In this document: piece by piece, positions 13,958 to 39,737 of the stretch
Numbering within the stretch: the stretch's first letter is position 1
Layout of the letters: each line of letters begins with the position of its first letter
Origin: a virus
Taxonomy: Duplodnaviria > Caudoviricetes
Virus record (IMG/VR): IMGVR_UViG_3300025889_000128
Span: 1-59,501 of that record
DNA length: 59,501 nucleotides
Direction: 5' to 3' (one strand)
Made by a program: the position numbers and the translations under genes
The notes under the pieces: model-generated
What the model saw: only the letters and a program-made list of their open reading frames with translations
The model's database searches: none
What the model was told of the DNA's origin: nothing

Positions 13958-14101
13958 TTAATCTTCACATTTCTGGATACAATCTTTGATTATACTCAGC
14001 CTGTATTGATTAACATTTGGTTCTTTTTCTAATCTTTCTAACACTTTCTTAAAATCTTTCAAGTGTGCTTTTCTATCTGATTCATTTGAATACATTGGCA
14101 T
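13958..14101 (-). CDS. 47-aa hypothetical protein (not in ORF track)
   Basis: ATG overlaps the radA stop; MPMYSNESDRKAHLKDF... Confidence 0.55.
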   Translation of the reverse strand: MPMYSNESDRKAHLKDFKKVLERLEKEPNVNQYRLSIIKDCIQKCED

Positions 14102-15108: not shown

Positions 15109-17061
15109 TTATGCCTTTCGGTATGTTCCGTCATTGTTTAATCTTACATGATTAAACTTTTCCCAGTTACCGAATAGTTTCTTTGCTTCTATTGGTTCAA
15201 ATCCATTGTCAATTAGTTTCTTCATAAACTCTACCAAGTTTACTTTGCCATTTGCATCTTCACATTCTGACCATGTTCTCTCTGCTAGTTGTTGTTTGTT
15301 TTCTTTGGTAGTTCCACCAAGAACTGATTGTCTATTACCAGAGTTCATAGTTATGTTGAATGAAGTATACATTGATTCAATCAAATCTTTAACTTGCATG
15401 ACATCTTCTATCTCTATAAAGTCTTTCAACTTTAACTTGGCAAGTGCATAAGACAATCTAACTAATGCTTCTAATTGTCTAGTACCTACAGGTAACTCAT
15501 CATTGTTAGATGTTGATCTCATTGTATTGTATATTTTTATTATCTCATTCTTCAAATCATCTGTAAGTTTTGGCTTCTGTGCTCTTGCTAAGTTTATCAA
15601 ACATACTAACTCATTCTCTGTTAATGGTATCTTTTTCTTCTCAGCAGGGTTTGATACAAAAGAATCTATGATATGACTAGCCTTTAACATATCTTCTGTG
15701 ACATTAACTGTATCTCTAATCAACCATATCAAATCAAACCTTGACAATAATGGTGCAGGTATATCTACATTGTCTCTTAATGTAGCACTTGAATCATAAG
15801 CACCATACTTTGGATTTGCTGCTGCTAAAATTGTAGTCTTTGTAGGTAGTGTTAATACAATACCTGCCTTAGCAATAGATACTGTTTGTTGTTCCATAGC
15901 CTCATGCATAGCACTTCTATCATCTTTACTCATCTTATCAAACTCATCAATAAATGCAAAGCCACCAGAACATAATGGCAATACACCTGCCTGTGCTACA
16001 AACCTTTCATTAATTTTAACGATAGCAATAGTAAGACCTGCTGCACTTGAACCTCTACCAGAAGTATAGATTGATTTCTTTGTAATCTTCTTTGCATACT
16101 TTAATAGTTCTGACTTTGCCATTGATGGATCGCCAACTAGAAAGATGTTAATATCAGAACGTCTAGCACCCTCAACACCTCTAACAAGTTGTAATAATAT
16201 TGACAACTTTATGTCTCTCATACCATAGATATTGGGTGCAAAACTACTAACTAATGAGTCAAGATAATCAGTATCCTGTGCCATTAATCTGAACTTCTTT
16301 TCGTCTTCATTAGATGGTAGTATATCTTCATCATCTTCCAAGTTATTTATTGCAAGTACATCAATGTAAACATCATTCTCATTTTCATTTACATCTATTA
16401 TCGACCTGAATATACCAGTGATTCTTTTCTTCTGTCCAATAAATGCAGTGCTCACATCATCACCATAGACTTTACCCATAAACAATACAGGACTACTGTG
16501 AACTGCTTTCTCTAATTGTTCTTGTAAGAATAAAGTTTGAACATCATCTGTTACTAAACTTTCTGGTCTAAATATCATCTTTGCTTTCTTACATGCAGGG
16601 TTACTACATACTGGTACTACAATCTTCTTTTCTATGTCACACTTTATTTGTTGTTCATTGAAACAACTATGACATACTGCGACTCCACTTTTAACATAAG
16701 TTTTAGGTGCATCTGTTGCAGATATAACACAATCAAAAGTAATAACTGTGTTCTCATAGTCAGAATTAATATCATGCATCTCAACTAATGAACTACCAAC
16801 TAATTTTATTTCCAAGTCTTTGAATGTAGTTGGTACATCAATCTCATCATACTGTTCACCAAGTATTTGATACAATGCATGTCTTACTTTCTCTTTGAAT
16901 CCAGTAGGATCTAAACCAAATACTTCTGAGAAATCATTAGACTCAATATCTAATGTGTATATACTGTTGGGTTTCAGTGATGATATTATCTTAGCATTAG
17001 TTGGTGATGATAATTTTGCATAAATAATATCACTGATTGCTGACTCTGTATATCCATTCAT
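15109..17061 (-). CDS. mcm: MCM replicative helicase
   Basis: CxxC...CxxxxC zinc finger, GDPSMAKS, IDEFDKM, HEAMEQQT, AAANP, SRFD. Confidence 0.97.
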   Translation of the reverse strand: MNGYTESAISDIIYAKLSSPTNAKIISSLKPNSIYTLDIESNDFSEVFGLDPTGFKEKVRHALYQILGEQYDEIDVPTTFKDLEIKLVGSSLVEMHDINSDYENTVITFDCVISATDAPKTYVKSGVAVCHSCFNEQQIKCDIEKKIVVPVCSNPACKKAKMIFRPESLVTDDVQTLFLQEQLEKAVHSSPVLFMGKVYGDDVSTAFIGQKKRITGIFRSIIDVNENENDVYIDVLAINNLEDDEDILPSNEDEKKFRLMAQDTDYLDSLVSSFAPNIYGMRDIKLSILLQLVRGVEGARRSDINIFLVGDPSMAKSELLKYAKKITKKSIYTSGRGSSAAGLTIAIVKINERFVAQAGVLPLCSGGFAFIDEFDKMSKDDRSAMHEAMEQQTVSIAKAGIVLTLPTKTTILAAANPKYGAYDSSATLRDNVDIPAPLLSRFDLIWLIRDTVNVTEDMLKASHIIDSFVSNPAEKKKIPLTENELVCLINLARAQKPKLTDDLKNEIIKIYNTMRSTSNNDELPVGTRQLEALVRLSYALAKLKLKDFIEIEDVMQVKDLIESMYTSFNITMNSGNRQSVLGGTTKENKQQLAERTWSECEDANGKVNLVEFMKKLIDNGFEPIEAKKLFGNWEKFNHVRLNNDGTYRKA

Positions 17062-19285: not shown

Positions 19286-19470
19286 GCTTTATACACCATA
19301 AATTTCGCCCTTACTAATCCATTACAACACTTACATCTAAGTCTTTTGTATTTTTTTTCTTTAAACATGTTTATTTCTCCTACTTTACGTCCACAATCTT
19401 GACAATAATGGTATTTGTCATGTGGTTTTTTTTCAAAAAAATCACAGATTCCTTTGCACATCGCGTACAA
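19282..19470 (-). CDS. Cys-rich zinc-binding protein (paralogue of 32505 and 39531)
   Basis: CKGIC...YCQDC...CKCC...R. Confidence 0.7.
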   Translation of the reverse strand: MYAMCKGICDFFEKKPHDKYHYCQDCGRKVGEINMFKEKKYKRLRCKCCNGLVRAKFMVYKA

Positions 19471-19488: not shown

Positions 19489-19743
19489 TTATATGTTATC
19501 GTAATCTGCTAATTCTTTATATACCCCTATACTAAGTAACACTTCATCAATTAATTCCTGTGATAAATCTATGATTTCTTGCGTAGTCATGTTATGACAT
19601 CTAGCATTTACCATGTGTTCAAGTATTTCCCTAGATTGTTTTGGAGTATGCTTACCCATAATTGTTAACATACCCAATGCAGTTTTATGTATGAGAAATT
19701 TTTCCCTCTCGCTTAGAGTCAAAACCAATTTTCCCCTAAACAT
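19489..19743 (-). CDS. Hypothetical protein
   Basis: In the leftward operon; exact start uncertain. Confidence 0.6.
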   Translation of the reverse strand: MFRGKLVLTLSEREKFLIHKTALGMLTIMGKHTPKQSREILEHMVNARCHNMTTQEIIDLSQELIDEVLLSIGVYKELADYDNI

Positions 19744-19988
19744 TCAATACATGTTTTGCCCTTATCTATTTCTTTTTGACCTAGATATTTGCCACACTTA
19801 TCACACTTTACATATACAGGGTTTTCTTTCGTGCTATTCTCGCGTACAATTTCTACTGCTCTTAGATACTTTTTTAGAGAATTTTCATCTCTATCATCAA
19901 AGTCGTTTGGTTTGGAAACTGACATTGGACTCCATATTTTTTCTTCAATATGTATAATTTTTTTGATTAATTTCTCTCTATCATTCAT
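19719..19988 (-). CDS. Hypothetical protein with C-terminal CxxC-CxxC
   Basis: CDKCG...CIEC; ATGA overlap with the VWA gene. Confidence 0.7.
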   Translation of the reverse strand: MNDREKLIKKIIHIEEKIWSPMSVSKPNDFDDRDENSLKKYLRAVEIVRENSTKENPVYVKCDKCGKYLGQKEIDKGKTCIECLGENWF

Positions 19989-21670
19989 TTCATTGACCTT
20001 ATAATCATCTGTTTGAAGTCTTTAATAACTCTTTCTGTAACACCTGTAAAGTTGGATACTTGTATGAATCTTTTCTTTCCAAATATTTCTTCCATAGTTT
20101 GTCTTGGAGTAGTATTATCTCTACTGTTCTTTAACAATATACATGTGATGTTATTTGTTTTTCTTCTTGCCTTTTGTAATGACTTCTTACACATTCTTAT
20201 CATCTGTGCATCACCTAGCATATACTTTCTACTTCGATATTCTGGTCTACCATCAGTAATCATTATCAAAAGTTTTCTATGTCCTTTCATCTTGTCTAAT
20301 TGTAATGCAGAATATTCAAGTGCTAAATGTGTAGGTGTAAGACCATATCCATTATACATATTTATCATATTTGTATCCTTGATATTTCTTATATCTGTAA
20401 TTCCAACATCACCCATAGCATTTGACGACCATACATTTACTTGTATATCAATACCTCTTACATTCTCAACTGACTTCATCATTGTATAAGCCAAGTTTCT
20501 TGCCTTAGTCATATTATCATCATAATACATTGAACCAGATCCATCAATAGATAGAACAACTGATACACCATTATCTGTTCTTTGTTTGTTCATAACTTTC
20601 GTTACGTCCTTACCTGTTATCTTGTTTTCAATGTATGATTCAATATTAACATCTTCACCATCATAGTCAATACTATCCGTCTTTGCTTCTTGTAAAGTTC
20701 TAAGGAATTTTTTTATATTTTTTCCTAATCTTTCATCATATTCAGGCTTTACTGTCGGTCTAAGGATTAGTTTATACTTTCTATTTAATTGAGGTTGTTG
20801 TGTGTTTGTCTTATCTGCGATAATAATAGATATTTGTTCCATGTCTTCTTCAAATTCTACTTTATCATCAGCAACTAATTTTTCTAATGTTTCAATATCA
20901 GTTTTTCCATCATTAGTTTTTTCCTGTGCAGTATCCTCAAAAATCATTTCATAAGTTAACACCTTACCATCTTTACTTATCTGTGGTCTTGTTGTTTCCT
21001 TACTATAATCTTGAAAGGTTGATCTGTTAGGTTGTTCTATGTTTGGCATGTATGCATGTCTTGTTGTGTAATCATCATACCATTCATCAAGTAATGGTTT
21101 TATCTTACAAAGTAATTTATATGCACCCATTCTACCTGTTCCCTCAACCACTTTCAATACATTCTGAAATGTTTCTTTTCTTTTACTAGTAACTAACTCA
21201 TCTCTGTAAAATCTTATTGCTAGTAATTCAGAAACAGGATCACCGTTAGAACAATCTGTCATATCAGTACCCAATTTTTTTCTAGTCTTCAGAAATCTAT
21301 CTTTGTTGGCTTTCCATAGATTCATTATAAAGTATTCAATTCGTTGATCTTCTATGATATTAAATGCATACCAATACATATTGAATCTATCTTTACTACC
21401 TTTAGACCATTGAGTTAATCTTCCCTTTGCTTCTAATATAGGTGACTTGCCTAACAAATGTCCACACTCATGTGACAATGCTGTTATTCTTTGTATGTGT
21501 TTTCTAGCAGGGCTAGATATGTTCATTCTATATTTGGTCTCACGCCATTGAACATAGTTTTCATCATTGAAGTTTGTGAGTTCGATTTTTTTTCCTATTA
21601 TATGCTCTACAATATCGGTTACTTGTCTAAAGTATTCGTTATCAGAGAGTATATCTCTGTCTCTTGCCAT
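19985..21670 (-). CDS. CobT/NorD-like protein: HExxH domain plus C-terminal VWA
   Basis: HECGH and FNIIEDQRIE at the N-terminus; MIDAS DGSGS, GLTP and ITDGRP. Confidence 0.85.
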   Translation of the reverse strand: MARDRDILSDNEYFRQVTDIVEHIIGKKIELTNFNDENYVQWRETKYRMNISSPARKHIQRITALSHECGHLLGKSPILEAKGRLTQWSKGSKDRFNMYWYAFNIIEDQRIEYFIMNLWKANKDRFLKTRKKLGTDMTDCSNGDPVSELLAIRFYRDELVTSKRKETFQNVLKVVEGTGRMGAYKLLCKIKPLLDEWYDDYTTRHAYMPNIEQPNRSTFQDYSKETTRPQISKDGKVLTYEMIFEDTAQEKTNDGKTDIETLEKLVADDKVEFEEDMEQISIIIADKTNTQQPQLNRKYKLILRPTVKPEYDERLGKNIKKFLRTLQEAKTDSIDYDGEDVNIESYIENKITGKDVTKVMNKQRTDNGVSVVLSIDGSGSMYYDDNMTKARNLAYTMMKSVENVRGIDIQVNVWSSNAMGDVGITDIRNIKDTNMINMYNGYGLTPTHLALEYSALQLDKMKGHRKLLIMITDGRPEYRSRKYMLGDAQMIRMCKKSLQKARRKTNNITCILLKNSRDNTTPRQTMEEIFGKKRFIQVSNFTGVTERVIKDFKQMIIRSMK

Positions 21671-22569
21671 TATACAGTTACACCAAATATCTCATGGATT
21701 CTGGTCTTAATAAGTTCTCGCTCTTCTATCTCTGAAAACTTTGTTACAATGACTTGTTTCAAAGTATTCTTCAATGAACTTATGTCACTTAAATGATTAG
21801 ATAACAATCTGTAATAATCACAGAATTGATCTATGTCTCTAGGTGATAAGACATAATCCACATCACCTTTCATTCTTAGTGCATGTATTTCAGTAGCCAA
21901 TGTAAGAAGTTCTTTCTTGGTATCATCTGGAATATCTGTCCAATTAGTGATTCTTTCTAAATCACTTTCTTTTGGATATTCAATGATGTCACCAATCATT
22001 CTACTTCTCAAGTCTTCTGTCAATGAGTTAACACCTGCGTATGTTACAGGGTTCATAGTTCCCACTATGATTAACCTACAACCTTGATTTAGTTTGTATG
22101 TTTTTCCATTTGCAATAACAGAACGTCTCTTATCGAATGGTCTATTGAATAGTTTCATTACTTCATGTTGAGTAGAGTTTAACTCATCAAGATATAGACA
22201 ACATGTTTTGTAGTGATTTGCAACTTCATAGGCTATTGGTAATACACCTAACTCAAAGAATGAACCACTCTCGTTAATCTGTATCCTACCAAGTAAGTCA
22301 TTTCTAGTAGTATTCATACTACATGAAAACTCTACTAATGGAATACCTAATTGTCTACATACAGTATGTACCATCAAAGTTTTACCTGTTCCTTTGTCAC
22401 CCTCTAACAAGTATGGAGTGTTACCAAATTTCATGTTAAGTTCTAGTAACATCATCTCGTCTTTGATAGGAATATATGTACCCCAATCATCTTGTATGGC
22501 AGGATTATACTGTTCCATATCAACATAGGCAGTTGGAATTTTAATTATGTTACTTTCTTTCTTGGTCAT
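21670..22569 (-). CDS. MoxR/CobS/CbbQ-like AAA+ ATPase
   Basis: GDKGTGKT, LYLDELN, GTMNP..YAG, DLRSR, SPR. Confidence 0.9.
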   Translation of the reverse strand: MTKKESNIIKIPTAYVDMEQYNPAIQDDWGTYIPIKDEMMLLELNMKFGNTPYLLEGDKGTGKTLMVHTVCRQLGIPLVEFSCSMNTTRNDLLGRIQINESGSFFELGVLPIAYEVANHYKTCCLYLDELNSTQHEVMKLFNRPFDKRRSVIANGKTYKLNQGCRLIIVGTMNPVTYAGVNSLTEDLRSRMIGDIIEYPKESDLERITNWTDIPDDTKKELLTLATEIHALRMKGDVDYVLSPRDIDQFCDYYRLLSNHLSDISSLKNTLKQVIVTKFSEIEERELIKTRIHEIFGVTV

Positions 22570-23449: not shown

Positions 23450-23667
23450 TAGACATACACCTCTAATACTGTGGTAGCACCACATGCTTTGGATTCCCCT
23501 ACGGAATTATTGAATGACATCTTTATGTCACAATCAACAAACTCAAACTTATCAGTAGAGTATGTTATACCATGTAACAAGTCTTGAACCATTAATGGCT
23601 TACCTGTTTTCTTCAATGTCTTCTTATACCATAGACGGTATCTTAATCTTTTTTCCATTACCATCAA
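23449..23667 (-). CDS. Hypothetical protein
   Basis: 72-aa ORF coupled to neighbours. Confidence 0.65.
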   Translation of the reverse strand: MMVMEKRLRYRLWYKKTLKKTGKPLMVQDLLHGITYSTDKFEFVDCDIKMSFNNSVGESKACGATTVLEVYV

Positions 23668-23816
23668 TACATTTCACTCCATCTATAATCTTCATACTCT
23701 TTATCACGAATTGTTTCGTGCTCGTATGAATAATCATTTGCGTAATCATCTAACCAATCTTTAAAAAATCTGGTTATGAAATGATTCCAAATCAAACCCA
23801 TGACTAAACGTTTCAT
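23664..23816 (-). CDS. 50-aa hypothetical protein (not in ORF track)
   Basis: ATG lies 21 nt downstream of promoter copy 23838-23862. Confidence 0.7.
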   Translation of the reverse strand: MKRLVMGLIWNHFITRFFKDWLDDYANDYSYEHETIRDKEYEDYRWSEMY

Positions 23817-23860
23817 AATTGTAATACGTTGAACTTGTATATAAGTCGATCTTTGATTAA

Positions 23861-23906
23861 TTCAGATTAATTCCGTAAGTTTCAGATTTAATCTGTAAGT
23901 TTCAGA
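23861..23906. repeat. 2.3 tandem copies of a 20-bp unit
   Basis: ttcagattaattccgtaagt / ttcagatttaatctgtaagt / ttcaga. Confidence 0.8.
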
Positions 23907-23916
23907 AAAGAAAATA

Positions 23917-24099
23917 AATACAGTAGGTAGGCGTGCCTGTTCTTCAATGAGCCACAAGCCCATTCTGAAAACGCCTCGTTCGTAAGTTATGTATCTCTGT
24001 CTTTTTTTTTTTGAACTTGAGCATGTAGTAATCGTACATGAATTACCTCAAGTCCTCTCTCGTCAATTCGAGCACATTGAGATCCTACTGTATTACAGT
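23917..24099 (-). ncRNA. Putative structured non-coding RNA (~180 nt)
   Basis: TATA tttaaata at 24128-24121 with no ATG at the usual spacing; 11-bp closing stem; four internal helices, two with G-U pairs that form only on the minus strand; U-rich tract at the 3' end. Confidence 0.65.
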
Positions 24100-24255
24100 A
24101 ATACTATTACTCTCTTATAGTATTTAAAGGTATATTTGATTTTTTTATTTTATTTTTTTTATTTTTTTTACTCGCGTACAAGTTACATTATGTCGTGTAC
24201 GACTCCATAACCGAACTGTTTATATACCCTTACATTCACAGGGCTCACAAAAAAA

Positions 24256-24732
24256 TTACTTGAACCAATCGGGTGCTGACCGATTAGTCCATTTGGCAAA
24301 GCCATGTTTCTCATGGATATAGTATTGTCTATAAGCCTCATGTGGATCATCACACTTATACTTATCAGGCATAGCCATAACAAACTTTGTCATTGGTGTA
24401 AGTGGAATGTTAGGATAAGGTAATGATGCAATAATATCCCATGACTTATGATTGACTTGTCTATTGTATCTAAACTTATACTCTTCATTCAATGCACTAG
24501 CATGTCTAACTAACCATAAATAATTAGACATGGACATGCCTGTCCATAGTGTGCATGGGTGATTAGCATGTGTCATTTTATAGGGTATGTCATACTTGAC
24601 ATTTCTATTAGGATATTTGTGATGGACGGTACAAATAATTTGTGCTGACTCTAGTATCATTTTGACAACATGCTTGTCACACATTTGTAAAGCCGAACCT
24701 TTTGGGCTTGGTGATAATGCGAATATGTTCAT
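24256..24732 (-). CDS. Pyrimidine-dimer DNA glycosylase/endonuclease V-related protein
   Basis: MNIF.L...DKHVVKMILESAQ...TH.NHPC..W...NY.WL...EY..RY...HKS...AMPD...AYR.YY. Start set at MNIF. Confidence 0.75.
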   Translation of the reverse strand: MNIFALSPSPKGSALQMCDKHVVKMILESAQIICTVHHKYPNRNVKYDIPYKMTHANHPCTLWTGMSMSNYLWLVRHASALNEEYKFRYNRQVNHKSWDIIASLPYPNIPLTPMTKFVMAMPDKYKCDDPHEAYRQYYIHEKHGFAKWTNRSAPDWFK

Positions 24733-24752
24733 AACAATAAAACACACTCGCA

Positions 24753-25073
24753 CTATTTAAGACTTGCTTTGATTGATTTGAGTGTCTCTCTCAATTCAAT
24801 GTAGTCGGCTATCCATGATAGAGAACGTCCATTCTCTACCATGAGCCATATCATACGAGACAGTTTTCTGTTATTAATCCCACAAGTTAATAACAACTTT
24901 CTCATACTAAGTCTAGTAAAACTAGACGGTAAAGAATGGACAGCGTAAGGGCTTGTATATCCTACTACTTCAGCAAGTGCTAGATAAGGACATTGATAAG
25001 AATATACTTTCTTATCTGCATCTCTCAATGCTTGTATAATATATTCTGTATCACTCATCTTGCAATACCTCAA
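24753..25073 (-). CDS. Hypothetical protein
   Basis: In the leftward operon; start may be MSDTEY. Confidence 0.6.
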   Translation of the reverse strand: MRYCKMSDTEYIIQALRDADKKVYSYQCPYLALAEVVGYTSPYAVHSLPSSFTRLSMRKLLLTCGINNRKLSRMIWLMVENGRSLSWIADYIELRETLKSIKASLK

Positions 25074-25338
25074 GTAACTCTTTCATGTGTCGGCATGTGT
25101 TTCTGTATCTATATCCAATACAATCACATACCCATACATTGTTATCCTTTGAGAGTATGTGTGAAGAGTTTGGATCACTCTTCGAATCACATTGGTATAT
25201 CATAGTATCAATTTGTTTTATCATCTTGATCTATTCCTCGTTATGTTCATACAGTTATCTATACCGTTTAACTCACATTCACTACACTTAACTGTTTGTT
25301 TAAAGTAGTGCTCGAAAGGTTTTCGGCATGTTCTACAT

Positions 25339-25683
25339 TTACTTATCAAGTCTATCACCTCGCTTGTTTCGTCTCGCTCTTCTCTCTCTATCTTGTTGCA
25401 TCTCAATATCTGTAACTGCAAAGTAGATTAGATTACTATACTCTAGTATTGCTTTCTTGTCTCTCATGTGATATTCTCGTATAAGTAACAATGGTATATC
25501 GTCCCATCTTATCTTACCTTTACGTCTATCAGATAAGTCTTCAAGCATCTCACCAAAAGTTTGAGTGAAAAAGATAGCATCATCTTTTTCATACTCAACT
25601 TTCTTTAGTATGTTATACGAAATCAATTCCTCAATCAAGATAATAGTTTTCTTATCATCTTTATTATTCAATCGTTTCGTCAT
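25339..25683 (-). CDS. Hypothetical protein
   Basis: ATGA overlap with the GATase gene. Confidence 0.7.
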   Translation of the reverse strand: MTKRLNNKDDKKTIILIEELISYNILKKVEYEKDDAIFFTQTFGEMLEDLSDRRKGKIRWDDIPLLLIREYHMRDKKAILEYSNLIYFAVTDIEMQQDRERRARRNKRGDRLDK

Positions 25684-26465
25684 ACGTTACCACCTTTGAG
25701 AGTGTCCCATAGATAACCATAGTCATCATAGTCCAGATCGGGATTTGTTTTCATGTCCTTATCATCAAACTCATCATCACTATCAATATCCCATTCATCT
25801 GTCCAGAAGTTATAGGCTTGCTTGGATTTCTTTTTCTTATTCTTTTTATCTTTCTTTTTACTGAAAGAAAAAGAATAAGGGCTTGGCATTTCTTTTTCTA
25901 TCTTTGGTACAAAGTAGTTGTTACTACATGTGTGACCATCAACGGTTACCCAACCGTCACCAAACTTATGAATACCTTTGGCATCTAATACAGTTATCTT
26001 ATTACCTTTGATAAGGTTTAAGATATTGTAACCGTATCTGTTAGCTAGCACTGCCATCGCTCTACTATCTGACCATGATGCACCATCTGGTACTGCAAGC
26101 TCACCAGATATAACACCATTCATTAGATGCTCATTCCATTCTGACCATGTACCATTATGGAATAACACTGCATCTGCATCACCAGATAATGCTAAGCCAC
26201 TGTTATCCTCGATAGGGAATGGGTGACATAGTTCTGGTTTGACAGAGCCAACTGATGCAATACGAAAGTGGATTATAGCAGGTAACTTAATCACACCTGT
26301 CTCAATCATGGTAATGATCTCTTCAGCATCTAGGTTTTTTCTGTAAGATACAGAACCAAACTCGTTAATCCATGCGACACCTGCACCATGAGAGTTAAGA
26401 GCTTCAGCACTTCTAAGAGTATCTGGTTTTGGGAATGAGTCTTCAGCTAGTATGATAACGCACAT
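25680..26465 (-). CDS. Class II (Ntn) glutamine amidotransferase
   Basis: N-terminal MC, NSHGAG, HFRIASVG, CHPF, FHNG, SDSR. Confidence 0.9.
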   Translation of the reverse strand: MCVIILAEDSFPKPDTLRSAEALNSHGAGVAWINEFGSVSYRKNLDAEEIITMIETGVIKLPAIIHFRIASVGSVKPELCHPFPIEDNSGLALSGDADAVLFHNGTWSEWNEHLMNGVISGELAVPDGASWSDSRAMAVLANRYGYNILNLIKGNKITVLDAKGIHKFGDGWVTVDGHTCSNNYFVPKIEKEMPSPYSFSFSKKKDKKNKKKKSKQAYNFWTDEWDIDSDDEFDDKDMKTNPDLDYDDYGYLWDTLKGGNV

Positions 26466-27673
26466 TATACTAACACCTCACTTACATATACAGGCTCTTC
26501 AATGTTATCTGCAAGGTATGAGTTAACAATGTCAATGAACTCAATGATAGCACTTTTTGCTATACGAGGCTCGTTGAATGTTGGTAAGAGTCTTGACTCT
26601 AATGTACCATGCATTGAATAGCAGTAGTTCAAGAATGAGTATCTTGATTGCTCTCTATATCTTGCTTTGTATTGTCTCAATGGATTGAATCGCTTCTTAG
26701 CATAGTAGCAATTACCATCTAGTCTATTCCAGAATCGTGAGCCCTCATTGATATTGTTACGCATACCCCATTCGTTATAACGTTTGAGATAATAGTTCCA
26801 GAACTTTTTGCTCATCAATTTACCATAAGACAAGTGGTTACCATTAGTGGAAATATGCACATGTATTCCACAACTTGAATCCATCTTATCTGGGTAATTA
26901 TTATCAACCCATCTCTCTAATGCTTCTTGATTAACAGGCTCGCTGTGTATCTCACCCTTAGCTGGACGACAACCACAATCATCATCACTATCATGTGGAC
27001 ATTGAGGAGTTACACTTAATGATACTGATCCATCATTGTATATACCATTTGGTGGTATTAACCAACCACCCTCAATCTCAACACCAGCTAATCCTACACC
27101 ATCAAGTTGTTTAACTATCATACCATCTGACATAATGATACAACCGTTATACTTTTGCTTGAGTTTCTTTAGTTTCTTTAACTGTTTTGCTATTTGGGAA
27201 TTGTATCTTAAATGTGATTCATTGTCAATACCATATAATGCTAGACCATAAGCCCTAGATATATCAATTAATGCACTAACAGTAGCATCAATTAGATCCT
27301 TTCTAATGGTTTGGTATTTCATTTCAGGTATTACACAATCATATATAGTCTTAGCAGTTGGGTGTGTGCTAAACATATATGGGATTGATACTTTGCCCGA
27401 TACACCATTAACATATACATCACCTTTTATAGAAACACTCTCATCTGATATGCTTGTTAACATATATGAGGAACTGAATCTCATACTATGAGATATATCA
27501 GATAAGCGTGATGCATTTGAAGAGATACATTTCAAGGCATTAGATAAGAATGTGGATTTTCTTGTTACTTCTAATCCTTTGGCAGTACGCTCAATGGTAA
27601 TACTAAAGTCCATTTCTGGAATTTCAGCGTTACACATTTGGGTAGCCATTTGTAATTGAACTGAATCGCTCAT
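26465..27673 (-). CDS. Putative amidoligase (COOH-NH2 ligase type 2, GS/GCS fold)
   Basis: GVEIEG, DGSV, EIHSEP, SCGIHVHIS, RYSFLN, TLESRL. Confidence 0.85.
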   Translation of the reverse strand: MSDSVQLQMATQMCNAEIPEMDFSITIERTAKGLEVTRKSTFLSNALKCISSNASRLSDISHSMRFSSSYMLTSISDESVSIKGDVYVNGVSGKVSIPYMFSTHPTAKTIYDCVIPEMKYQTIRKDLIDATVSALIDISRAYGLALYGIDNESHLRYNSQIAKQLKKLKKLKQKYNGCIIMSDGMIVKQLDGVGLAGVEIEGGWLIPPNGIYNDGSVSLSVTPQCPHDSDDDCGCRPAKGEIHSEPVNQEALERWVDNNYPDKMDSSCGIHVHISTNGNHLSYGKLMSKKFWNYYLKRYNEWGMRNNINEGSRFWNRLDGNCYYAKKRFNPLRQYKARYREQSRYSFLNYCYSMHGTLESRLLPTFNEPRIAKSAIIEFIDIVNSYLADNIEEPVYVSEVLV

Positions 27674-28082
27674 ACAATCAAAACGCTTTCATCATATATA
27701 AGTCGATCTTTGATTAATTTCAATTCGGATTTTGTCAAAGTCAACAATAATCGAGCCCTGAACCAATAGGGATTAATAAACAGTTCTACCATAGGCAATA
27801 ACAACATTAAATGTCATATAACGTAACGATTTGATTCGACAAAATACACGCCATACATGGCGAGCATGGATATAAAAACAGTTCGGTCACGTCCGTAACT
27901 ACAAATTTTTTTTTTTTTAATTTTAAAACATATAACACTCACGCCTAATCACTCGCGTACAACTCAGCGAGCGAACTCTTTATATATCCCTACCAACGAT
28001 AGAACTCTTTATATATCCTTACTCGCAATAGAACTCTTTATATATCCTTACATGGGCGTGGTCATTAAAAAAATAGTGGGTG

Positions 28083-28316
28083 CTACCACTCTGTATCGCA
28101 CTCTGGTTCAGAGCATGCTACTAGTTCACAATAGTAGTTACCATTCTTTTGTTGATAGTAACCACCTTTAAGTGTCCCATCATACTTATCACCATCTTGT
28201 TTTAACAACTTGATAACTTCAGAAAGTCCACCTAGTGCATCTTTCTTGTTACCATACATACTGTTGTTATCGGGAATACACCCACAGAGTCCATTAATCA
28301 CGTGGTAATGAAACAT
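28083..28316 (-). CDS. Cassette gene, hypothetical
   Basis: Own motif-A promoter and downstream T-tract. Confidence 0.8.
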   Translation of the reverse strand: MFHYHVINGLCGCIPDNNSMYGNKKDALGGLSEVIKLLKQDGDKYDGTLKGGYYQQKNGNYYCELVACSEPECDTEW

Positions 28317-28435
28317 AATACTAATACATCGTAATCATATATAAACATAGATTTGATTGTTATATAACCATGTAATGTAGGGATATATAAACAGTTTGTT
28401 TACCTGTAATAAAAAAAGTGGGATTGATAGGCTCA

Positions 28436-28672
28436 CTATAATTCTAAGTGTGCTACTTTATCAATTTCCCCTTGGAGATATACTTCATTGACACTTTTAA
28501 TGTCAATGCCTGTAACACCTTTAAAGTTCAATTTCTTGATGCCTAAAGGTATTTGTTTGTTACCTGCATTACTGACATCAGATGGTAATAGTCTAGCCAA
28601 TTTGACTAATGCAACTATTACGTCTCTTTGACATTTGGTCAATTCTGCTTGGTATGCTTTTACATCAAACAT
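28436..28672 (-). CDS. Cassette gene, hypothetical
   Basis: Own motif-A promoter and T-tract. Confidence 0.8.
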   Translation of the reverse strand: MFDVKAYQAELTKCQRDVIVALVKLARLLPSDVSNAGNKQIPLGIKKLNFKGVTGIDIKSVNEVYLQGEIDKVAHLEL

Positions 28673-28857
28673 ATTATACTATGTGTCGTTATGATATATA
28701 AACATGTATTTGATTAATTTTTTTATTTTTTTTAACCACGCCTTTACTATACTATATTACTCGCGTACATGTCCGTACAACCAAACTCTTTATATAGCCT
28801 TACTAAAATCGAACTGTTTATATACCCTTACTTTTGCCTGCCATAATAAAAAAAAGG

Positions 28858-29055
28858 CTAGATGAGCCCGTAGTAGTGTTTAACACGATTAACCATCTTG
28901 CTACTTGTTCGGCTCGGTTTGTATTCACTAAGTATTTTCTTAGTGGCTAATTCAATTTCAATAATCTTAGTGCCATAATGAAAACAAGTTACTATACCCT
29001 CATTTTCAATGACAGCAGATTCCTTGACTAATTGAATGTCTCGAATCATGTTCAT
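28858..29055 (-). CDS. Cassette gene, hypothetical
   Basis: Promoter spacing of 21 nt places the start at 29055, not 29064. Confidence 0.8.
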   Translation of the reverse strand: MNMIRDIQLVKESAVIENEGIVTCFHYGTKIIEIELATKKILSEYKPSRTSSKMVNRVKHYYGLI

Positions 29056-29210
29056 ATTATACATAATACGTTATCATATATAAGATTAGATTTGATTAAT
29101 TCTCTATACTATACCACACAAAACCCACAAACAAAAACCCCCCTCGCTCGCGTACAACAGGAATGAGTAGGGATATATAAACAGTTTGTTTCAGGCAAAT
29201 AAAAAAAAGG

Positions 29211-29429
29211 TTACTGTGATAATGCTCTAAGAAGTCTTTGGCTTCTCAAGTGTGCATTATCTTTGTTTCTGGTCAAGTCAGCCATGAGTTTATCTTGTTC
29301 TGCATCGACATCAAGAACTAAAACCTCACATGAGCCGTTAAGCCAGTGCAAGGTTAGGTTGTCGAAGACAGAATAAGTTAAAGTCTCAAAGACGACTTCT
29401 CCACATTCTGGACATGTTAGACCAATCAT
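29211..29429 (-). CDS. Cassette gene with CPECG motif
   Basis: Own motif-A promoter and T-tract. Confidence 0.8.
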   Translation of the reverse strand: MIGLTCPECGEVVFETLTYSVFDNLTLHWLNGSCEVLVLDVDAEQDKLMADLTRNKDNAHLRSQRLLRALSQ

Positions 29430-29604
29430 TAACTATCTTATGTTGTTATAATATATAAAGTGAGATTTGATTAATTTGATTAGTATACTATACCATAAGA
29501 AACCAATTAAAGCCCATGGAATTAGTAAGGATATATAAACAGTTTGGTAAGGGCAGAACTCTTTAAATATCCCTACAATACCTGTTTCTAATAAAAAAAA
29601 AGTC

Positions 29605-29949
29605 TCATGGCTCTAGCCATGGGTTGCGACTCATCATAGCATCTTCAATCGCATAGTCTTCGATTGCTTCAATGCTCAAGTCTTTGTATTCTGGGTTATT
29701 CATCATCTGGTCGATTCTGTCACAAGCAGTAAGGCGATCTTTGCCCTCTGTCTCGTCCCATTCTTTGGCAAGTTCTCTGTAAGTCTTGCCTGTGGCTTCG
29801 TCAATTTGGTCAAGCCATGAACAGGATTCATGCCATGCACCAAATCCACTTAACCATTTGATGAGTTCACCCCTGCGAATACTTCCATCACAGATTTTAC
29901 AAACGCCTCTGTATTTGGAAGAAAAAACGCGTGTTTGATTCCATCTCAT
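29605..29949 (-). CDS. Cassette gene with N-terminal zinc finger
   Basis: SKYRGVCKICD...WHESC; own promoter. Confidence 0.8.
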   Translation of the reverse strand: MRWNQTRVFSSKYRGVCKICDGSIRRGELIKWLSGFGAWHESCSWLDQIDEATGKTYRELAKEWDETEGKDRLTACDRIDQMMNNPEYKDLSIEAIEDYAIEDAMMSRNPWLEP

Positions 29950-30139
29950 AGTATAACTAATGTCTTATAGTATATAACCCCCACTTTGATTAATTGCAAG
30001 TCCCCCCCAGAACTAGGTATTGTAAGGCTATATAAACAGTTCTATTCACTATCGCTCGCGTACAACTATTCAATCAAACTCTTTATATACCCTTACATGT
30101 GAGGTATATGATAAAAAAAATGGTGACGACCATTGATGA

Positions 30140-30277
30140 TTACTCATCAATGAACACAGCATCACCAATGATACAGTTTGTACCATAACGTAAATGATAA
30201 TCCTTATGTCTATTGACTCTTATCAAAAACAAAGAGTCATTCTTGTCAAAAGATTGACCACACAAACTACATATCAT
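30140..30277 (-). CDS. Cassette gene, 45-aa C2H2-like zinc finger (not in ORF track)
   Basis: MICSLC-x17-HKDYH; ATG 21 nt from promoter copy 30299. Confidence 0.8.
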   Translation of the reverse strand: MICSLCGQSFDKNDSLFLIRVNRHKDYHLRYGTNCIIGDAVFIDE

Positions 30278-30394
30278 AAAATCAATACGTCCTCATTACA
30301 TATAAACATAGATTTGATTAATAATACGCCCTAACACTCGCGTACGAATATTTGGAGTAGGGATATATAAACAGTTCTGTAATAATAAAAAAGA

Positions 30395-30658
30395 TTAGTT
30401 GTTAGCTTGGTGTTTTGCTATATCATCTTTGAGTTTCTCAAAGACAGTTTCAACCAAACTAATGTTCTTTAAGATGTCGTCAATTCTAAAGTCGTCATAC
30501 ACGACAAATGTATTGCCTTGCATGCGAACTGCAATCGACTCAATCAACTTGGCACACATCTCAACACTTCCTTGGTTAAAGGTTGTGTGTAAGTATCCCT
30601 CTTTGCTGATTGGTGGCATCTCGTAAGATTTACCATTGAATGAGAACTTGTGGTTCAT
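30395..30658 (-). CDS. Cassette gene, hypothetical
   Basis: Own motif-A promoter and T-tract. Confidence 0.8.
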   Translation of the reverse strand: MNHKFSFNGKSYEMPPISKEGYLHTTFNQGSVEMCAKLIESIAVRMQGNTFVVYDDFRIDDILKNISLVETVFEKLKDDIAKHQANN

Positions 30659-30816
30659 AATAGGAATAAGTCGTTATAGTATATAATACTTACTTTGATT
30701 AATTCCATGCATCAGTAAATCGAACTGTTTAAATATCCTTAGATGATTGAATCTCGTTTCTATACTATAAATTAATCAAAGATAGTGTTAAATACTATAA
30801 CAACTAAACTCTATTA

Positions 30817-31098
30817 ATGCAAAGTTCAGAAGAGATGAACATGGTATATAAAGCCATCAAAAACGCTTTCGATACCAGAGATTCACAATTCGAATCGAGT
30901 AGATTGAACGGTGAGTTCAGCATCAGAACCGATGCACCTTGCCAAGCAGTTCAAATCACTCCAAAAAGTAACGAACATCACATCGACAAAACCCTTTGTG
31001 ATTTAGTTACTGGAGTTCTTCAGCAATTTTGTGCCGTCAGTTTTTGGTTAAGAACCGATTATGACGACAACAAAACTGTTGTAATGAGAATCTCCTAA
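30817..31098 (+). CDS. Cassette gene, hypothetical (divergent orientation)
   Basis: Motif A on the plus strand, 22 nt before the ATG. Confidence 0.8.
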   Translation: MQSSEEMNMVYKAIKNAFDTRDSQFESSRLNGEFSIRTDAPCQAVQITPKSNEHHIDKTLCDLVTGVLQQFCAVSFWLRTDYDDNKTVVMRIS

Positions 31099-31258: not shown

Positions 31259-31585
31259 ATGGGGGAGACAATAATCCAAGCAAGGCAAATACTCATCAAA
31301 GAACACACATTACCACCATTAACAGTAGCATATCTACCATCACCAACATTCTTTCAAGATTTTATGAAAGAAGCTGGGACAGATGAAGAACTCCTTACCC
31401 TAATAACAACCATAACAAGAATACGAAAAAAGAAAATAACACATGTAGCACTATACATACCAAACGAAGAATTTGAGCAAAGGCTCTCTCCAGAGGAAAT
31501 GGAGTTTTACATATCCCTCAGAGATGCAGGGAAAAAATTAGCAAACCTTACCTGTATTCCTCAAGAACTTCAGGATTTCTCCTAG
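31259..31585 (+). CDS. Hypothetical protein
   Basis: 108-aa ORF with an upstream AT-rich TATA-like element. Confidence 0.65.
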   Translation: MGETIIQARQILIKEHTLPPLTVAYLPSPTFFQDFMKEAGTDEELLTLITTITRIRKKKITHVALYIPNEEFEQRLSPEEMEFYISLRDAGKKLANLTCIPQELQDFS

Positions 31586-33049: not shown

Positions 33050-35011
33050 ATGGGCTTTAGAGACTATCTAACCAACGTAAGCAAGGCTTTTATTAATAAA
33101 TCTAATACCGAAACTACAGTTAGACCTAGTATTACAACCCCATATATGAGTACCGATACAGGTGCAAAGTTACCTATTTTCCCATTCCCACTGATGATGA
33201 TTTACGAATTAGCAGATAATATTGATGCATTAAGAATACCTATTGAGACAATTAATAGAGAAATGTTTAAGAATGGATTCGAAATTGTGGAAAAATGGAA
33301 GTATAAATGCGAGAATTGTGGTAAAGAGTTCCAATATGCACCAACTATTGATGATAAACCAGATGAACAACCATTTGAGCAGAACCAAGATAACGAAACA
33401 AATGCAATTCCAAAAGCAAAGGCAATTATTGATGAATCACAGTTACAATGTGATACATGTGGCAATACAAACCTAAGACGACCAGTACCAGAACACAGAT
33501 TAATACTTGAAAACCTTATTACAAAACCAGTAAATGGAAACCAACAAACACTTGAAGATTTAGCAAGACAGTTGGAAAGAGATTTGGAAATTGCAGATAA
33601 TGCATACTTGTTAGTGTTGAAACAGTATAATATCAATGATAGAACTGGTGAAATTAATCACGATCAATCCGAAATCAAAGAGTATCTTAGAATAGATCCA
33701 CCACAGGTAGCCATGATTTGCGATTCTGATGGTAGATTGGGATATAACGACAAACACGAACCTATATTTGTTTGTCCATACTTTGAACATAGAAGAACTA
33801 GACTCCACAAAGATACATGTGAAAAAACAGATGATGGAGTTCATAGTAATCCAGTTAAAGCCCTAAAGGCATTGATTGAAGTAAATGCTGTTTATTCGAT
33901 TGGTACTCCACAACCAAAGTCAGTAATTTATGGAGAGGGTGAAGTTGTTTGGAAAGCAGGTAAATACAAGCCATCATTAGTATATGGATTCTCCCCTATT
34001 TATGCTGTATGGTCTAAAGCCATGACATTATCTCACATGGACGAATATGTTAGAAAGTATTTCGATAAAATGAGACCACCAAGAGGTATGTTGGTTATTG
34101 CATCAAGAAACTATGAGACATTTAGAAAATCATGGGGTGAACTTGAGATGAGAGCAGCAGAAGATCCTTATATGATTCACCCATTGATGGTAGAATCTGA
34201 TAAAGGTGGAAAGAACATGGCACAATGGATTGATTTCACTGGATCATTAAGAGAATTAGAATTTATTGAAGTTAGAAAGGAATTAAGACAACTAATTGGT
34301 GCAATTTATGGTGTCTTACCACTCTATTTCGGTGAAATGGTAGGTGGGTGGTCACAAGAGGGATTACAAGTTACAATTACAAACAGAGCAGTAAAATGGG
34401 GACAAGACATACTATCAAAGGCATTTTTCGATAAAATTGCAGAGATGTTGAATGTAGATGATTGGCATTTAAGATTAAAAGGTGGAGAAGAAAACGACAA
34501 ACTCAGAGAACTACAAACTGATGGTGTTGAAATTCAAAACATGGCTATTCTACAACAAATGGGCTTTGATATTACCAGAACTCACACTGGAGAGTTCAAA
34601 GTAAGCAAAGAAACTGCATTAAGTGCAAGTGATATGATGATGAATGACATGCAAGCAAGAATGGGTAGAGGTAGAGGAACTGCATCTCCAAAAGAAAATA
34701 GACAAAATATGCAAGGTGAACCATTACAAACTAGACCATCTGATATGGGTGGAGTTAGTCAAGGATTCCCTGCAAGTGGTTCTGGTACTACAATGTCAAA
34801 GAAAGCATACAATGACGGTATTACTCCAGATAACTTTGATGTTATCAAATCATTACTACAAACTGCTGTAAATTATGATTGGAATAAGGGAAAAATGGTA
34901 GATGAACTAAGAAAACAAGCAGGTATGACAGTTAGACAAGCAAGAGATTTAGTTAAAAACGAATTAAGTATGGTAAAAAGATGGGAAGACGTTGACGAAG
35001 AAAAATCATAA
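33050..35011 (+). CDS. Portal protein with zinc-ribbon insertion
   Basis: DLEIADNAYL, YGFSPI, YF....PPRGML and IGAIYGV.P portal-like motifs; CENC...CDTC insertion; first large gene of the head module. Confidence 0.85.
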   Translation: MGFRDYLTNVSKAFINKSNTETTVRPSITTPYMSTDTGAKLPIFPFPLMMIYELADNIDALRIPIETINREMFKNGFEIVEKWKYKCENCGKEFQYAPTIDDKPDEQPFEQNQDNETNAIPKAKAIIDESQLQCDTCGNTNLRRPVPEHRLILENLITKPVNGNQQTLEDLARQLERDLEIADNAYLLVLKQYNINDRTGEINHDQSEIKEYLRIDPPQVAMICDSDGRLGYNDKHEPIFVCPYFEHRRTRLHKDTCEKTDDGVHSNPVKALKALIEVNAVYSIGTPQPKSVIYGEGEVVWKAGKYKPSLVYGFSPIYAVWSKAMTLSHMDEYVRKYFDKMRPPRGMLVIASRNYETFRKSWGELEMRAAEDPYMIHPLMVESDKGGKNMAQWIDFTGSLRELEFIEVRKELRQLIGAIYGVLPLYFGEMVGGWSQEGLQVTITNRAVKWGQDILSKAFFDKIAEMLNVDDWHLRLKGGEENDKLRELQTDGVEIQNMAILQQMGFDITRTHTGEFKVSKETALSASDMMMNDMQARMGRGRGTASPKENRQNMQGEPLQTRPSDMGGVSQGFPASGSGTTMSKKAYNDGITPDNFDVIKSLLQTAVNYDWNKGKMVDELRKQAGMTVRQARDLVKNELSMVKRWEDVDEEKS

Positions 35012-38249: not shown

Positions 38250-39464
38250 ATGGTTCAAATCAGAACAATAGATGAGCTCGAAGCACTCTATTATGGTTTC
38301 AACAGAAATCTCATTCAAAAAGCTGATGCACCTATCACAACTGCCACAAGTGGTACTTTTAACGCCATTTTTGGTGCTTATGCATGGGCTCAACTTAACT
38401 TGGAAGCAAACGCTTTTGGTATTCTTCCAAAGTATCCATGGGATAAATCTGGTTGGCGTGTCATAACAGCTAGAGCAGCAGGTCTTGCTGATGCAGGTTC
38501 AAACAATAACACCTCTCTTGGTGGAACTGCCGAGGGTGGACTTATTGCTGATACCGTAAAACCAACTCTCCAAGAATTAGATGTAAAACCAAAGACAGCA
38601 CAACTGCCTTTCAGTGCATCTGAAGTTATGGAATGGTTGGCAAGCCACAGTAAAGACGACATTTGGGGTGGACTTGGTTCACTTCGTTTGTTTATGGCAG
38701 TACAACATAAAGAAAACATCAATAAAATGCTTCTTGCCGATGTTGAGACACAAGCTAGTGGAGCTAGTGCTGATTTCGCAGGTTCATTAGACTTTGAATC
38801 CTTAGACAGAATTGTCTCAAGTGATGCAGAAGAAGATGCACTAGGTGGATCATACAACAATTATTATGATTGTTGGAATAAGATCGACAGAGATTCAGGC
38901 ACAGATTTCGACTCTACAGTTGAATCAGCTAGTGGTACTATCGGTACTGATGGTGTCCTTACTGACGATACCTTGAGAACTTTCCTAAGAAAGATCAGAA
39001 AGGCAGCAGGTAAAGATCCAAATGTATTCCTCGGTTCTCACGAAGTATATTCCGAAATTCAAGGCTTATACATGCCATCTGTAAGAATTGCAAATCCTTA
39101 CGGTGAAGCACTCGTACAAGTTGATGTTAACGGAATTTCAACATTCAAGGGAACTGGTGTTGGTATTCATGTAGACTCAATTTATGGAATCCCATTCATT
39201 CCAACTAAAGATGCACCATCTGGTGGTGGAAATGAAGTTGGTAGACTATTTGCATTAGATACTTCTGATGCAGAGGGTTATGGTTATCCAAGAATTGGTA
39301 TACAAATCGCAATCCCAACAGAGTATTACGAAGCAACTCGTAGAACACCTGCATATCCATTTGTCAACAATGCATTTGTTGAGAAAGGTGTGTTCAGAAC
39401 TATGGGTGAAACAGTTTGTCGTCACTTCAAAGCACAAGGAAAAATCAGAGACATTAAACTCTAA
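38250..39464 (+). CDS. Major capsid protein (HK97 fold)
   Basis: 404 aa directly after the protease/scaffold; SD-like GAGG upstream; AEGG, FESLDRIV and IYGIPFIP features. Confidence 0.85.
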   Translation: MVQIRTIDELEALYYGFNRNLIQKADAPITTATSGTFNAIFGAYAWAQLNLEANAFGILPKYPWDKSGWRVITARAAGLADAGSNNNTSLGGTAEGGLIADTVKPTLQELDVKPKTAQLPFSASEVMEWLASHSKDDIWGGLGSLRLFMAVQHKENINKMLLADVETQASGASADFAGSLDFESLDRIVSSDAEEDALGGSYNNYYDCWNKIDRDSGTDFDSTVESASGTIGTDGVLTDDTLRTFLRKIRKAAGKDPNVFLGSHEVYSEIQGLYMPSVRIANPYGEALVQVDVNGISTFKGTGVGIHVDSIYGIPFIPTKDAPSGGGNEVGRLFALDTSDAEGYGYPRIGIQIAIPTEYYEATRRTPAYPFVNNAFVEKGVFRTMGETVCRHFKAQGKIRDIKL

Positions 39465-39530: not shown

Positions 39531-39737
39531 ATGGGATTTATTTGTAAAAACTATTGTGAGAGAATTGAAATCAAAGTATTTGCTGCAAATGCTTATGATG
39601 GTAATTGCTACTGTACTAGATGTTCAGTATGGTTAAAACTATCTGATTTGGAAGGATTAAAATGTCCTTGTTGTAAACAAAGAGCAAGACAGAAAAAAAG
39701 ATACCTTAGATCAAAAGAAATTAAACGTATTGATTAA
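39531..39737 (+). CDS. Cys-rich zinc-binding protein
   Basis: CKNYC...YCTRC...CPCC..RAR; TATA at 39501-39508. Confidence 0.75.
   Translation: MGFICKNYCERIEIKVFAANAYDGNCYCTRCSVWLKLSDLEGLKCPCCKQRARQKKRYLRSKEIKRID

Follow-up and report, generated by a model that had tools for sequence, protein, structure and literature searches.

The 59,501-bp IMG/VR record IMGVR_UViG_3300025889_000128 (estimated completeness 95%), the whole of which is referred to here as the window, is the genome of an uncultivated archaeal tailed virus with marine or estuarine archaea as hosts, and its early region carries a 21-bp TATA-containing box that is repeated in the spacers between 24213 and 30742. For these boxes we favor a reading to which we give about an even chance, namely that they act as regulated intergenic-repeat promoters resembling those of the archaeal tailed virus HF2, i.e., as a virus-specific core promoter that would be composed of a block resembling the TFB-recognition element (BRE), a TATA box and a CCYTAC block. 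A second promoter class of this type is supported by the non-random occurrence of the boxes in spacers only, by their promoter-like polarity, by the geometry of the predicted start sites, by the position of oligo-T runs, by the conservation among related viruses and by the HF2 precedent. The archaeal tailed-virus gene content of the window justifies the use of archaeal TATA/BRE signals as frame of reference. If the boxes are promoters, they provide a testable map of a second transcription program with 12 predicted start sites and, moreover, a natural experiment, the element having opposite orientations in sister lineages. If they are protein-binding sites only, they constitute a family-wide regulatory signature that can aid the annotation of such viruses. 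How tailed viruses of marine archaea time their gene expression is hardly understood so far.

Distribution and arrangement of the box

The box follows the pattern RAACTSTTTAWATANCCYTAC, in which a RAAC(TS) block, the TATA element TTTATATA and a CCYTAC block succeed each other. At up to two mismatches, the threshold used for the main count, 14 matches were found, all of them in the interval 24213-30742 (13 exact; the copy at 30722 has one mismatch), compared with an expectation of 0.01; none of 100 shuffles reached 14, and the reversed pattern used as a control gave neither forward nor reverse matches. Three degenerate copies, detected at up to three mismatches or with a position weight matrix (PWM), are located at 19510 (+), 27766 (−) and 27864 (−) and bring the total to 17, in good agreement with the about 16 copies reported in an initial annotation made from the sequence. 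Nine of the strong boxes are on the plus strand and five on the minus strand, which becomes ten and seven if the degenerate copies are included. The copies are spread over nine spacers within 6.5 kb. All 14 strong copies are placed between open reading frames (ORFs) and the other 53 kb contain no strong copy; the confinement to spacers that had been noticed initially therefore holds and the motif is not scattered over the genome. The sole box outside the region in the 59.5 kb is the weak site at 19510..19530 (+), which is accompanied by a CGC-like motif at 19460-19468 and by an upstream plus-strand T-run. What the data establish is where the boxes lie, their sequence and polarity, their geometry and their conservation.

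The minus strand encodes the genes between about 14 and 30.7 kb, and among these seven small genes of 45–114 amino acids between 28083 and 30658 each form a separate unit. The boxes are found after the terminator of one gene and before the proximal promoter of the next one. Eight strong boxes, all on the plus strand, are antisense to the early genes (24213, 27973, 28002, 28031, 28783, 28811, 29556 and 30076), and six are sense, i.e., they stand upstream of the next gene's own promoter and point in the same direction (the five minus-strand copies plus 30722 on the plus strand). All six sense boxes carry AACTG and six of the eight antisense boxes carry AACTC. The element had first been described as a TATA-containing box with no gene to drive, which is strictly correct only for the eight antisense copies.

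The tandem and inverted arrangements are as initially described. Three exact antisense boxes (27973, 28002 and 28031; 27973..28051, +) follow each other at a period of 29 behind the terminator of the gene 28083-28316, and two further antisense boxes (28783 and 28811; 28783..28831, +) at a period of 28 behind the terminator of the gene 28858-29064. In the inverted pair 29525..29576 the AAC sides of a sense box (29525-29545, −) and an antisense box (29556-29576, +) face each other; the length of the spacer in this pair is not fixed, as strain contigs carry a 1-nt insertion at 29553. The second inverted pair, 30022..30096, is arranged around a CGC motif (CTCGCGTACAAC, 30055-30066) and consists of a sense box (30022-30042, −) and an antisense box (30076-30096, +). 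The single antisense copy 24213..24233 (+, exact) is the first element behind the terminator 24249-24255 and opposes the operon 24256-27673. The remaining sense copies are 28377..28397 (−), which precedes the promoter of 28083-28316 and stands 13 nt behind the terminator of 28436-28672, 29167..29187 (−) behind the terminator of 29211-29429, 30357..30377 (−), 9 nt behind the terminator of 30395-30658, and 30722..30742 (+) in a divergent spacer, upstream of the own promoter of the plus-strand gene 30817-31098 and in the same direction. Both degenerate minus-strand copies are sense boxes with three mismatches: 27766..27786 (PWM score 24.5) upstream of the promoter of a gene for a 402-amino-acid protein, and 27864..27884 (PWM score 27.5) in the long spacer 27674-28082.

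Polarity and predicted start sites

The TTTAWATA core of the box is the same as the TATA element of 19 genes that have their ATG 21–23 nt downstream, and it shows the same polarity. This leaderless-type TATA-to-ATG distance was found in 19 of 25 genes examined genome-wide, late genes included. Directly before the TATA element a BRE-type block is present, which is RAAC(TS) in the box and of the AAAC type in late promoters (33050, 36564 and 40981, directly before TTTAWATA; the promoter at 39531 has an ACG-type block), a resemblance at the level of sequence. Moreover, in two related loci (L052 and L060) an ACGC block precedes the TATA element in the box variants as well as in the gene promoters.

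The early genes possess their own proximal promoters, built from AATCAAA, 6 nt, TTTATATA, 21–22 nt and the ATG. Of the ten, the promoter at 28329..28358 (−) with a 21-nt distance to the ATG may serve as an example; the others precede the ATGs at 23816, 27673, 28672, 29064, 29429, 29949, 30277, 30658 and 30817. The ATG follows the TATA end after 21–22 nt in nine of ten cases and after 12 nt at 29064, where an in-frame ATG 9 nt further on (29055) gives a spacing of 21 nt and is the more plausible start of the gene 28858-29064. In the boxes an ATG at 21–23 nt from the TATA end is found in 0 of 14 cases, as the initial annotation had pointed out for the standard spacing.

At this distance the antisense boxes show a different feature. 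In all five terminator-adjacent antisense boxes an A-run preceded by T/C begins 22–23 nt past the TATA end (22 nt for 24213 and for the last copy of the array 27973..28051, 23 nt for 28811 and 29556), which gives predicted plus-strand starts at 24249, 28067, 28847/8, 29592/3 and 30112/3. For two sense boxes, 29167 and 30357, the G of a conserved GTAC|GCGAG (29151 and 30341) is located exactly 23 nt past the TATA end, and these positions are the predicted starts; a start on the G of GCGAG applies to two of the five minus-strand sense copies. Across ten loci the predicted start falls into the run or within 1 nt of it in 22 of 24 cases.

From these features we infer binding of the boxes by TBP/TFB, their transcription, its timing and its effect. 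The boxes would be used by the host TBP, TFB and RNA polymerase and would form a second promoter class apart from the leaderless-type promoter of each early gene, with the CCYTAC block as the probable site of a dedicated regulator. The eight boxes opposing the early genes would direct transcription against them, and in each case the antisense RNA from the box next to the terminator would begin with the first A of the A-run. Read on the other strand this A-run is the gene's oligo-T terminator. The counter-transcript would span the whole early mRNA. It would end at plus-strand T-runs (27906, 28718) or continue toward the late genes. The six boxes aligned with the next gene would give a leadered transcript, which in two cases would begin on the G of GTAC|GCGAG. 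Plus-strand T-runs just left of the CGC motif and the plus-strand box clusters are present at 24140-24169, 27906-27918 and 28718-28733, and they could terminate antisense transcripts. Antisense promoters were one of four options offered in the initial annotation, and for the eight plus-strand copies this option is the best supported of the four (polarity, A-run start in 5/5, orientation shared with the related locus L013 in 4/4); the six sense copies fall outside it.

The boxes are accompanied by a second motif, CTCGCGTAC(AAC), which the initial annotation does not mention. It occurs always on the plus strand, in seven exact copies compared with 0.94 expected when up to one mismatch is counted (27952..27963 and at 24171, 28760, 29147, 30055, 30337 and 19839; a further copy at 19460 has one mismatch). 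In four of the seven copies, the G of the minus-strand GCGAG is exactly 23 nt away from the adjacent TATA element's edge (27952, 29147, 30055 and 30337), whatever the direction of the box. The motif may be an operator or an initiator.

Conservation in related viruses

Relatives were collected by a portal protein search of IMG/VR, which yielded 80 loci with 59–85% identity. The exact window box has only four single matches in IMG/VR and is absent from the portal-retrieved loci, and at up to three mismatches it is found as single matches only, in 10 of 84 other loci; the window's variant is thus private to its lineage. Own box variants were found in 13 related loci with enough upstream sequence, down to a portal identity of 65%, e.g., CAATC-TTATATA-CCCCTAC in L013, AACC-TTTATATA-CCCTT in L086 and AACGC-TTWWATA-CCCCT in L030. 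The CCCCT(A) side is kept across the lineages, and on the BRE side each lineage has its own version, which does not vary within a genome.

The window and L013 are syntenic, with flanking proteins that are 39–50% identical and a box sequence that differs. Antisense orientation is kept in all four orthologous spacers, and position and copy number are conserved as well (with 3/4 copies in one spacer): the endonuclease-V-like gene has one antisense box in the window (24213) and one in L013 (1772), the 77-amino-acid gene three and four in tandem, the 68-amino-acid gene two and two (5740 and 5768 in L013, again with a period of 28), and the gene of a 45-amino-acid zinc-finger candidate (30140-30277) one (in the pair 30022..30096) and one (6185). 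This conservation despite the divergence of proteins and box argues for selection on orientation and number within the window/L013 lineage. Plus-strand boxes occur at the place of 30722 also in L013 (7595, 7624) and in L086 (7442), and L013 has plus-strand T-runs before the box clusters (5229, 5678 and 6932), a layout as in the window. Tandem periods of 27–30 were found in 20 of 31 same-strand neighbor pairs.

In L086 a GC-richer stretch of about 360 nt without a clear ORF (6260-6620, −) is located between a promoter and a T-run and is followed by nine sense boxes within about 460 nt (5771-6235). A possible interpretation is a non-coding RNA gene that is followed by a box "hub".

Comparison with known systems

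The closest precedent is found in halovirus HF2 and other haloferacalesviruses, for which two classes of intergenic repeats of 58 bp (class I) and 29 bp (class II) were described, all nine repeats of HF2 being active promoters (Russ, Pfeiffer, and Dyall-Smith, 2021; PMC8707807). Class II repeats contain AT motifs separated by C runs and are bidirectional, with roughly half the activity in reverse, and long counter-transcripts were found; the authors propose that virus-encoded factors read the conserved flanks (PMC8707807). As HF2 is described there, both cases concern an archaeal tailed virus with conserved repeats in intergenic regions only, in which a TATA box is framed by conserved flanks and repeat positions are conserved among relatives. 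HF2 is described as having no polymerase or basal factor of its own and as relying on the host machinery; for the window's virus, searches of its proteins with the TFIIB and TBP families gave no match and a viral polymerase was not searched for. In the same account the nine HF2 repeats head long operons, whereas here about 17 copies are found behind the terminators of monocistronic genes with their own promoters. Here, moreover, tandem arrays at 28–30 bp and inverted pairs are present and more than half of the copies are antisense. Finally, the box flanks diverge between lineages, in contrast to the strong sequence conservation of the repeats reported within the HF2 genus (PMC8707807). By analogy the present boxes resemble HF2-type intergenic-repeat promoters in kind; the likeness is one of analogy, not of homology, and from its description HF2 is set apart as the system for which activity is proven.

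For counter-transcription the halovirus phiH1 provides an example, in which the antisense RNA Tant is directed against the early lytic transcript T1 and silences the early mRNA (PMC8707807). In phiH1, as far as it is described, this is one dedicated antisense unit, whereas here a promoter-like element is repeated behind several genes.

Phages of the T7 type carry sets of conserved promoters of about 20 bp, all of them pointing in gene direction, which exist in an own variant in each virus and are read by a phage-encoded single-subunit polymerase. The boxes share with them the many near-identical copies per genome and the own variant of each related virus, and differ in having an archaeal TATA core in a virus that encodes neither TFB nor TBP.

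A broader view, which we hold only tentatively and consider possible rather than probable, is that oligo-T terminator and box together form a modular "gene junction" signal used throughout a clade of marine archaeal tailed viruses, in which the orientation of the box decides whether its TBP/TFB platform restarts transcription for the next cassette or launches a silencing counter-transcript that begins with the first A of the terminator's A-run. The complementarity of mRNA and antisense RNA would in that case extend up to their termini. Once the regulator bound to CCYTAC activates the boxes, duplexes or colliding polymerases would silence the early mRNA. A flip of the box would turn a gene from "boosted" to "shut off" while the gene itself is untouched. 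Full-text searches of the literature returned no description of a coupling between boxes and oligo-T terminators in archaeal viruses, the HF2 paper alone being relevant, and this coupling could reveal insulation or counter-transcription of archaeal transcription units.

Promoter, roadblock or operator

Several observations weigh against a function of the boxes as promoters. None of the 23 sequencing runs listed is on record as RNA, which weighs neither for nor against transcription. The virus's own gene promoters lack the CCYTAC block and the core TTTATATANCCCYTA has no match in 800 kb of a metagenome-assembled genome (MAG) of a candidate host, which suggests that the reader of this block is probably other than the basal factors. 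The distance from TATA to the terminator run is alike in both orientations (16–17 vs. 20–23 nt), and a geometry centered on a bound protein therefore fits as well as a start site. Within a tandem array, an upstream copy has its predicted start on the TATA element of the next one, so that no more than the last copy could fire cleanly. In the relatives L028, L030, L034, L039, L041 and L060, 16 inverted pairs have their CCCCT sides facing each other, 12 of them 22–36 bp apart; as promoters such pairs would be convergent and mutually exclusive, which suggests that some copies are binding sites only. The orientation bias is strong within genomes and differs between them, L013 being nearly all antisense (16 +, 1 −) and L086 (1 +, 13 −) and L030 (6 +, 17 −) nearly all sense, so that there is no single directional logic family-wide. 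Finally, a like CGC motif is found 14 nt, not 23 nt, from the TATA element in L013 and L086, which weakens its reading as an initiator. As a firm claim, a role of the CGC motif as general initiator was rejected, given the 23-nt spacing in four of seven window copies and the 14-nt spacing in these two loci.

The terminators are T6–T9 runs on the minus strand, 0–19 nt past the stop codon (24249-55, 28067-73, 28411-17, 28848-55, 29201-08, 29593-601, 30113-20 and 30387-92), and between 24.2 and 30.7 kb a box follows 9–16 nt downstream in all eight cases, in either orientation. Of 134 boxes in ten non-redundant loci, 65 are accompanied within 25 nt by an oligo-T run of incoming polarity and six by a run of opposite polarity, and the gaps between box and run are 8–14 nt on the AAC side and 10–16 nt on the CCCCT side. 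These data are compatible with a roadblock or insulator, an explanation that we consider unlikely: a protein (TBP/TFB or a dedicated factor) bound to the box 10–16 bp behind the oligo-T run would stall read-through polymerase on the U-rich hybrid and shield the next promoter from occlusion, any RNA from the box being incidental. Between run and box the spacer keeps its length and not its sequence, lineages differ freely in box orientation and convergent pairs do occur, all of which fits a bound protein. Terminators of RNA polymerase I have a protein roadblock at a similar distance downstream of a T-rich release element. They share with the arrangement seen here the T-rich element followed at a short fixed distance by a protein box, which is repeated behind the gene and present also before the next promoter; they differ in being eukaryotic, in using Myb-type factors and in having orientation-dependent sites, and serve as an analogy only. 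A roadblock does not account for the boxes in divergent spacers without incoming transcription (30722 and its counterparts in L013 and L086), which always point toward the plus-strand gene, nor for the inner copies of tandem arrays and the cluster of nine sense boxes in L086 (5771-6214), which are far from terminators. It would also not require the conservation of orientation and copy number in the four spacers shared with L013. Furthermore, any intergenic element in such compact cassettes must fall near a terminator.

Somewhat less probable again, in our view, is a function as operator only, in which a viral or host protein would bind AAC and CCYTAC across the AT-rich spacer and regulate the proximal promoters, no transcript being made from the box. 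The absence of CCYTAC from gene promoters fits such a site. The copies of L030 and L027 differ in their AT core and have constant flanks, and the lineage-specific, genome-uniform flank on the BRE side looks as if it co-evolved with a trans-acting factor. In relatives with mostly sense boxes the TATA of the box is, as judged by eye, usually about 29–31 bp before the proximal TATA. Regulator sites inside the repeats were also proposed by the HF2 authors (PMC8707807). Against this reading stands the complete arrangement of BRE-like block and TATA in the right polarity, which host TBP and TFB could hardly ignore, and the exact spacing of 22–23 nt to the A-run, which it leaves unexplained. A viral candidate for the binding protein is likewise missing from the Pfam search of 30 ORFs, where no ribbon-helix-helix (RHH), winged helix-turn-helix (wHTH) or helix-turn-helix protein was found and the C2H2 zinc-finger matches were weak and below the cut-off; the viral RHH/wHTH proteins mentioned in the initial annotation were thus not recovered. 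Of its option of repressor or iteron sites, a regulator site in CCYTAC remains plausible, whereas an iteron origin is unsupported, the boxes being spread over nine spacers and Cdc6_C giving no match.

Decoys, recombination and replication

The promoter-like boxes might alternatively be decoys for TBP and TFB, i.e., optimal sites that absorb the initiation factors of the host and thereby starve host promoters or hold a local reservoir, an option of the initial annotation that has no specific support and that we regard as very unlikely. The many strong BRE/TATA-like sites, the tandem arrays, the missing ATG behind all 14 boxes and the lack of own TFB or TBP would suit such a function. However, 17 sites per genome are a small sink, a sponge needs neither strict placement at terminators nor a conserved orientation, and the additional CCYTAC block is not explained.

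Equally improbable is a role as recombination sites for cassette shuffling or as iterons of a replication origin. The boxes bound cassettes that differ between relatives, four cassettes of the window having no homologue in L013 or L086, and the long spacer 27674-28082 joins boxes with a 13-nt A/T run. On the other hand, the one strain-level cassette indel seen joins at a different element. Contigs of four DNA runs (X2, X4, X10 and X12) were aligned to the window and showed strain variation; among the differences listed a 331-nt insertion at 30313-30320 is present in contigs of X2, X4 and X10 and was not seen in X12, which has short contigs. The joint of the insertion is the AATCAAA of the proximal promoter, and no joint at a box is found among the listed differences. 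This looks like one gene cassette gained or lost by recombination between promoter repeats, and cassette turnover therefore seems to proceed via the promoter repeat and not via the box. Moreover, searches of the virus with the Phage_integrase and Cdc6_C families gave no match, whereas serine recombinases were not searched for. The recombination-site option of the initial annotation is therefore not borne out, given the position of the joint and the absence of a tyrosine integrase match. For an origin, the copies would be expected at one AT-rich element, while they are distributed over nine spacers. The adjacent gene for the 402-amino-acid protein resembles amidoligases and not initiators, as a lead, and the next gene has a weak GATase_6 match, which leaves the origin reading without support. 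Taken together, the decoy, recombination and origin readings account for a small share of the probability.

The two genes just mentioned lie at 25680-27673 (−). The 402-amino-acid protein is amidoligase-like according to language-model features, with a high score that is taken as a lead, and has no relative in the PDB by sequence. It is followed by a 261-amino-acid protein with the weak GATase_6 match, and the pair may, as predicted, form a module for peptide or small-molecule modification.

Genome setting and host

The window encodes an MCM helicase (15109-17061, −), RadA (14101-15084, −), a portal protein (33050-35011, +) and an HK97-type major head protein (38250-39464, +), the closest named relatives of the latter being haloarchaeal siphoviruses of the HVTV-1 type with about 26% identity. 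CobS-like and CobT-like AAA and VWA proteins are encoded as well; the CobT-like VWA protein and the CobS-like AAA_5 protein adjoin each other (19985-22569, −), an arrangement described for other tailed viruses of archaea. Next to the early region a small protein that is GINS (Sld5)-like (31259-31585, +) is encoded. The GC content of the window is 29–38%. The small cassette proteins gave no confident function in searches of Pfam and PHROGs, and neither Rfam at gathering thresholds nor ARAGORN gave a match in the window.

A host search with RadA resulted in two contigs with 69–72% identity, of which the one with 72% belongs to a MAG labeled Candidatus Nitrosopelagicus. This contig may itself be viral, and the thaumarchaeal host is to be taken as a lead; the virus of the window and its relatives are probably viruses of ammonia oxidizers. 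A search for proviruses or hosts with the portal protein against genome contigs found no relative, and 48 upstream regions from 12 contigs of the candidate host MAG showed no clear promoter consensus by eye.

Beside the early genes, the stretch 23817-24255 comprises 439 nt without an ORF of at least 45 amino acids and contains long T/A runs. Within it a promoter-like AATCAAAT..TTTAAATA is found at about 24120-24141 (−), and a direct repeat of about 20 nt occurs in two copies and part of a third (about 23862-23905), immediately upstream of the gene 23664-23816 and its promoter. Rfam gave no match in this stretch, which may hold a small RNA or regulator sites. At the other end of the window the word TTGGAATA recurs often at 55100-58600, within the large plus-strand ORF 54594-59501 (>1636 amino acids), and these repeats suggest from the sequence that the ORF encodes a repeat-rich tail or fiber protein.

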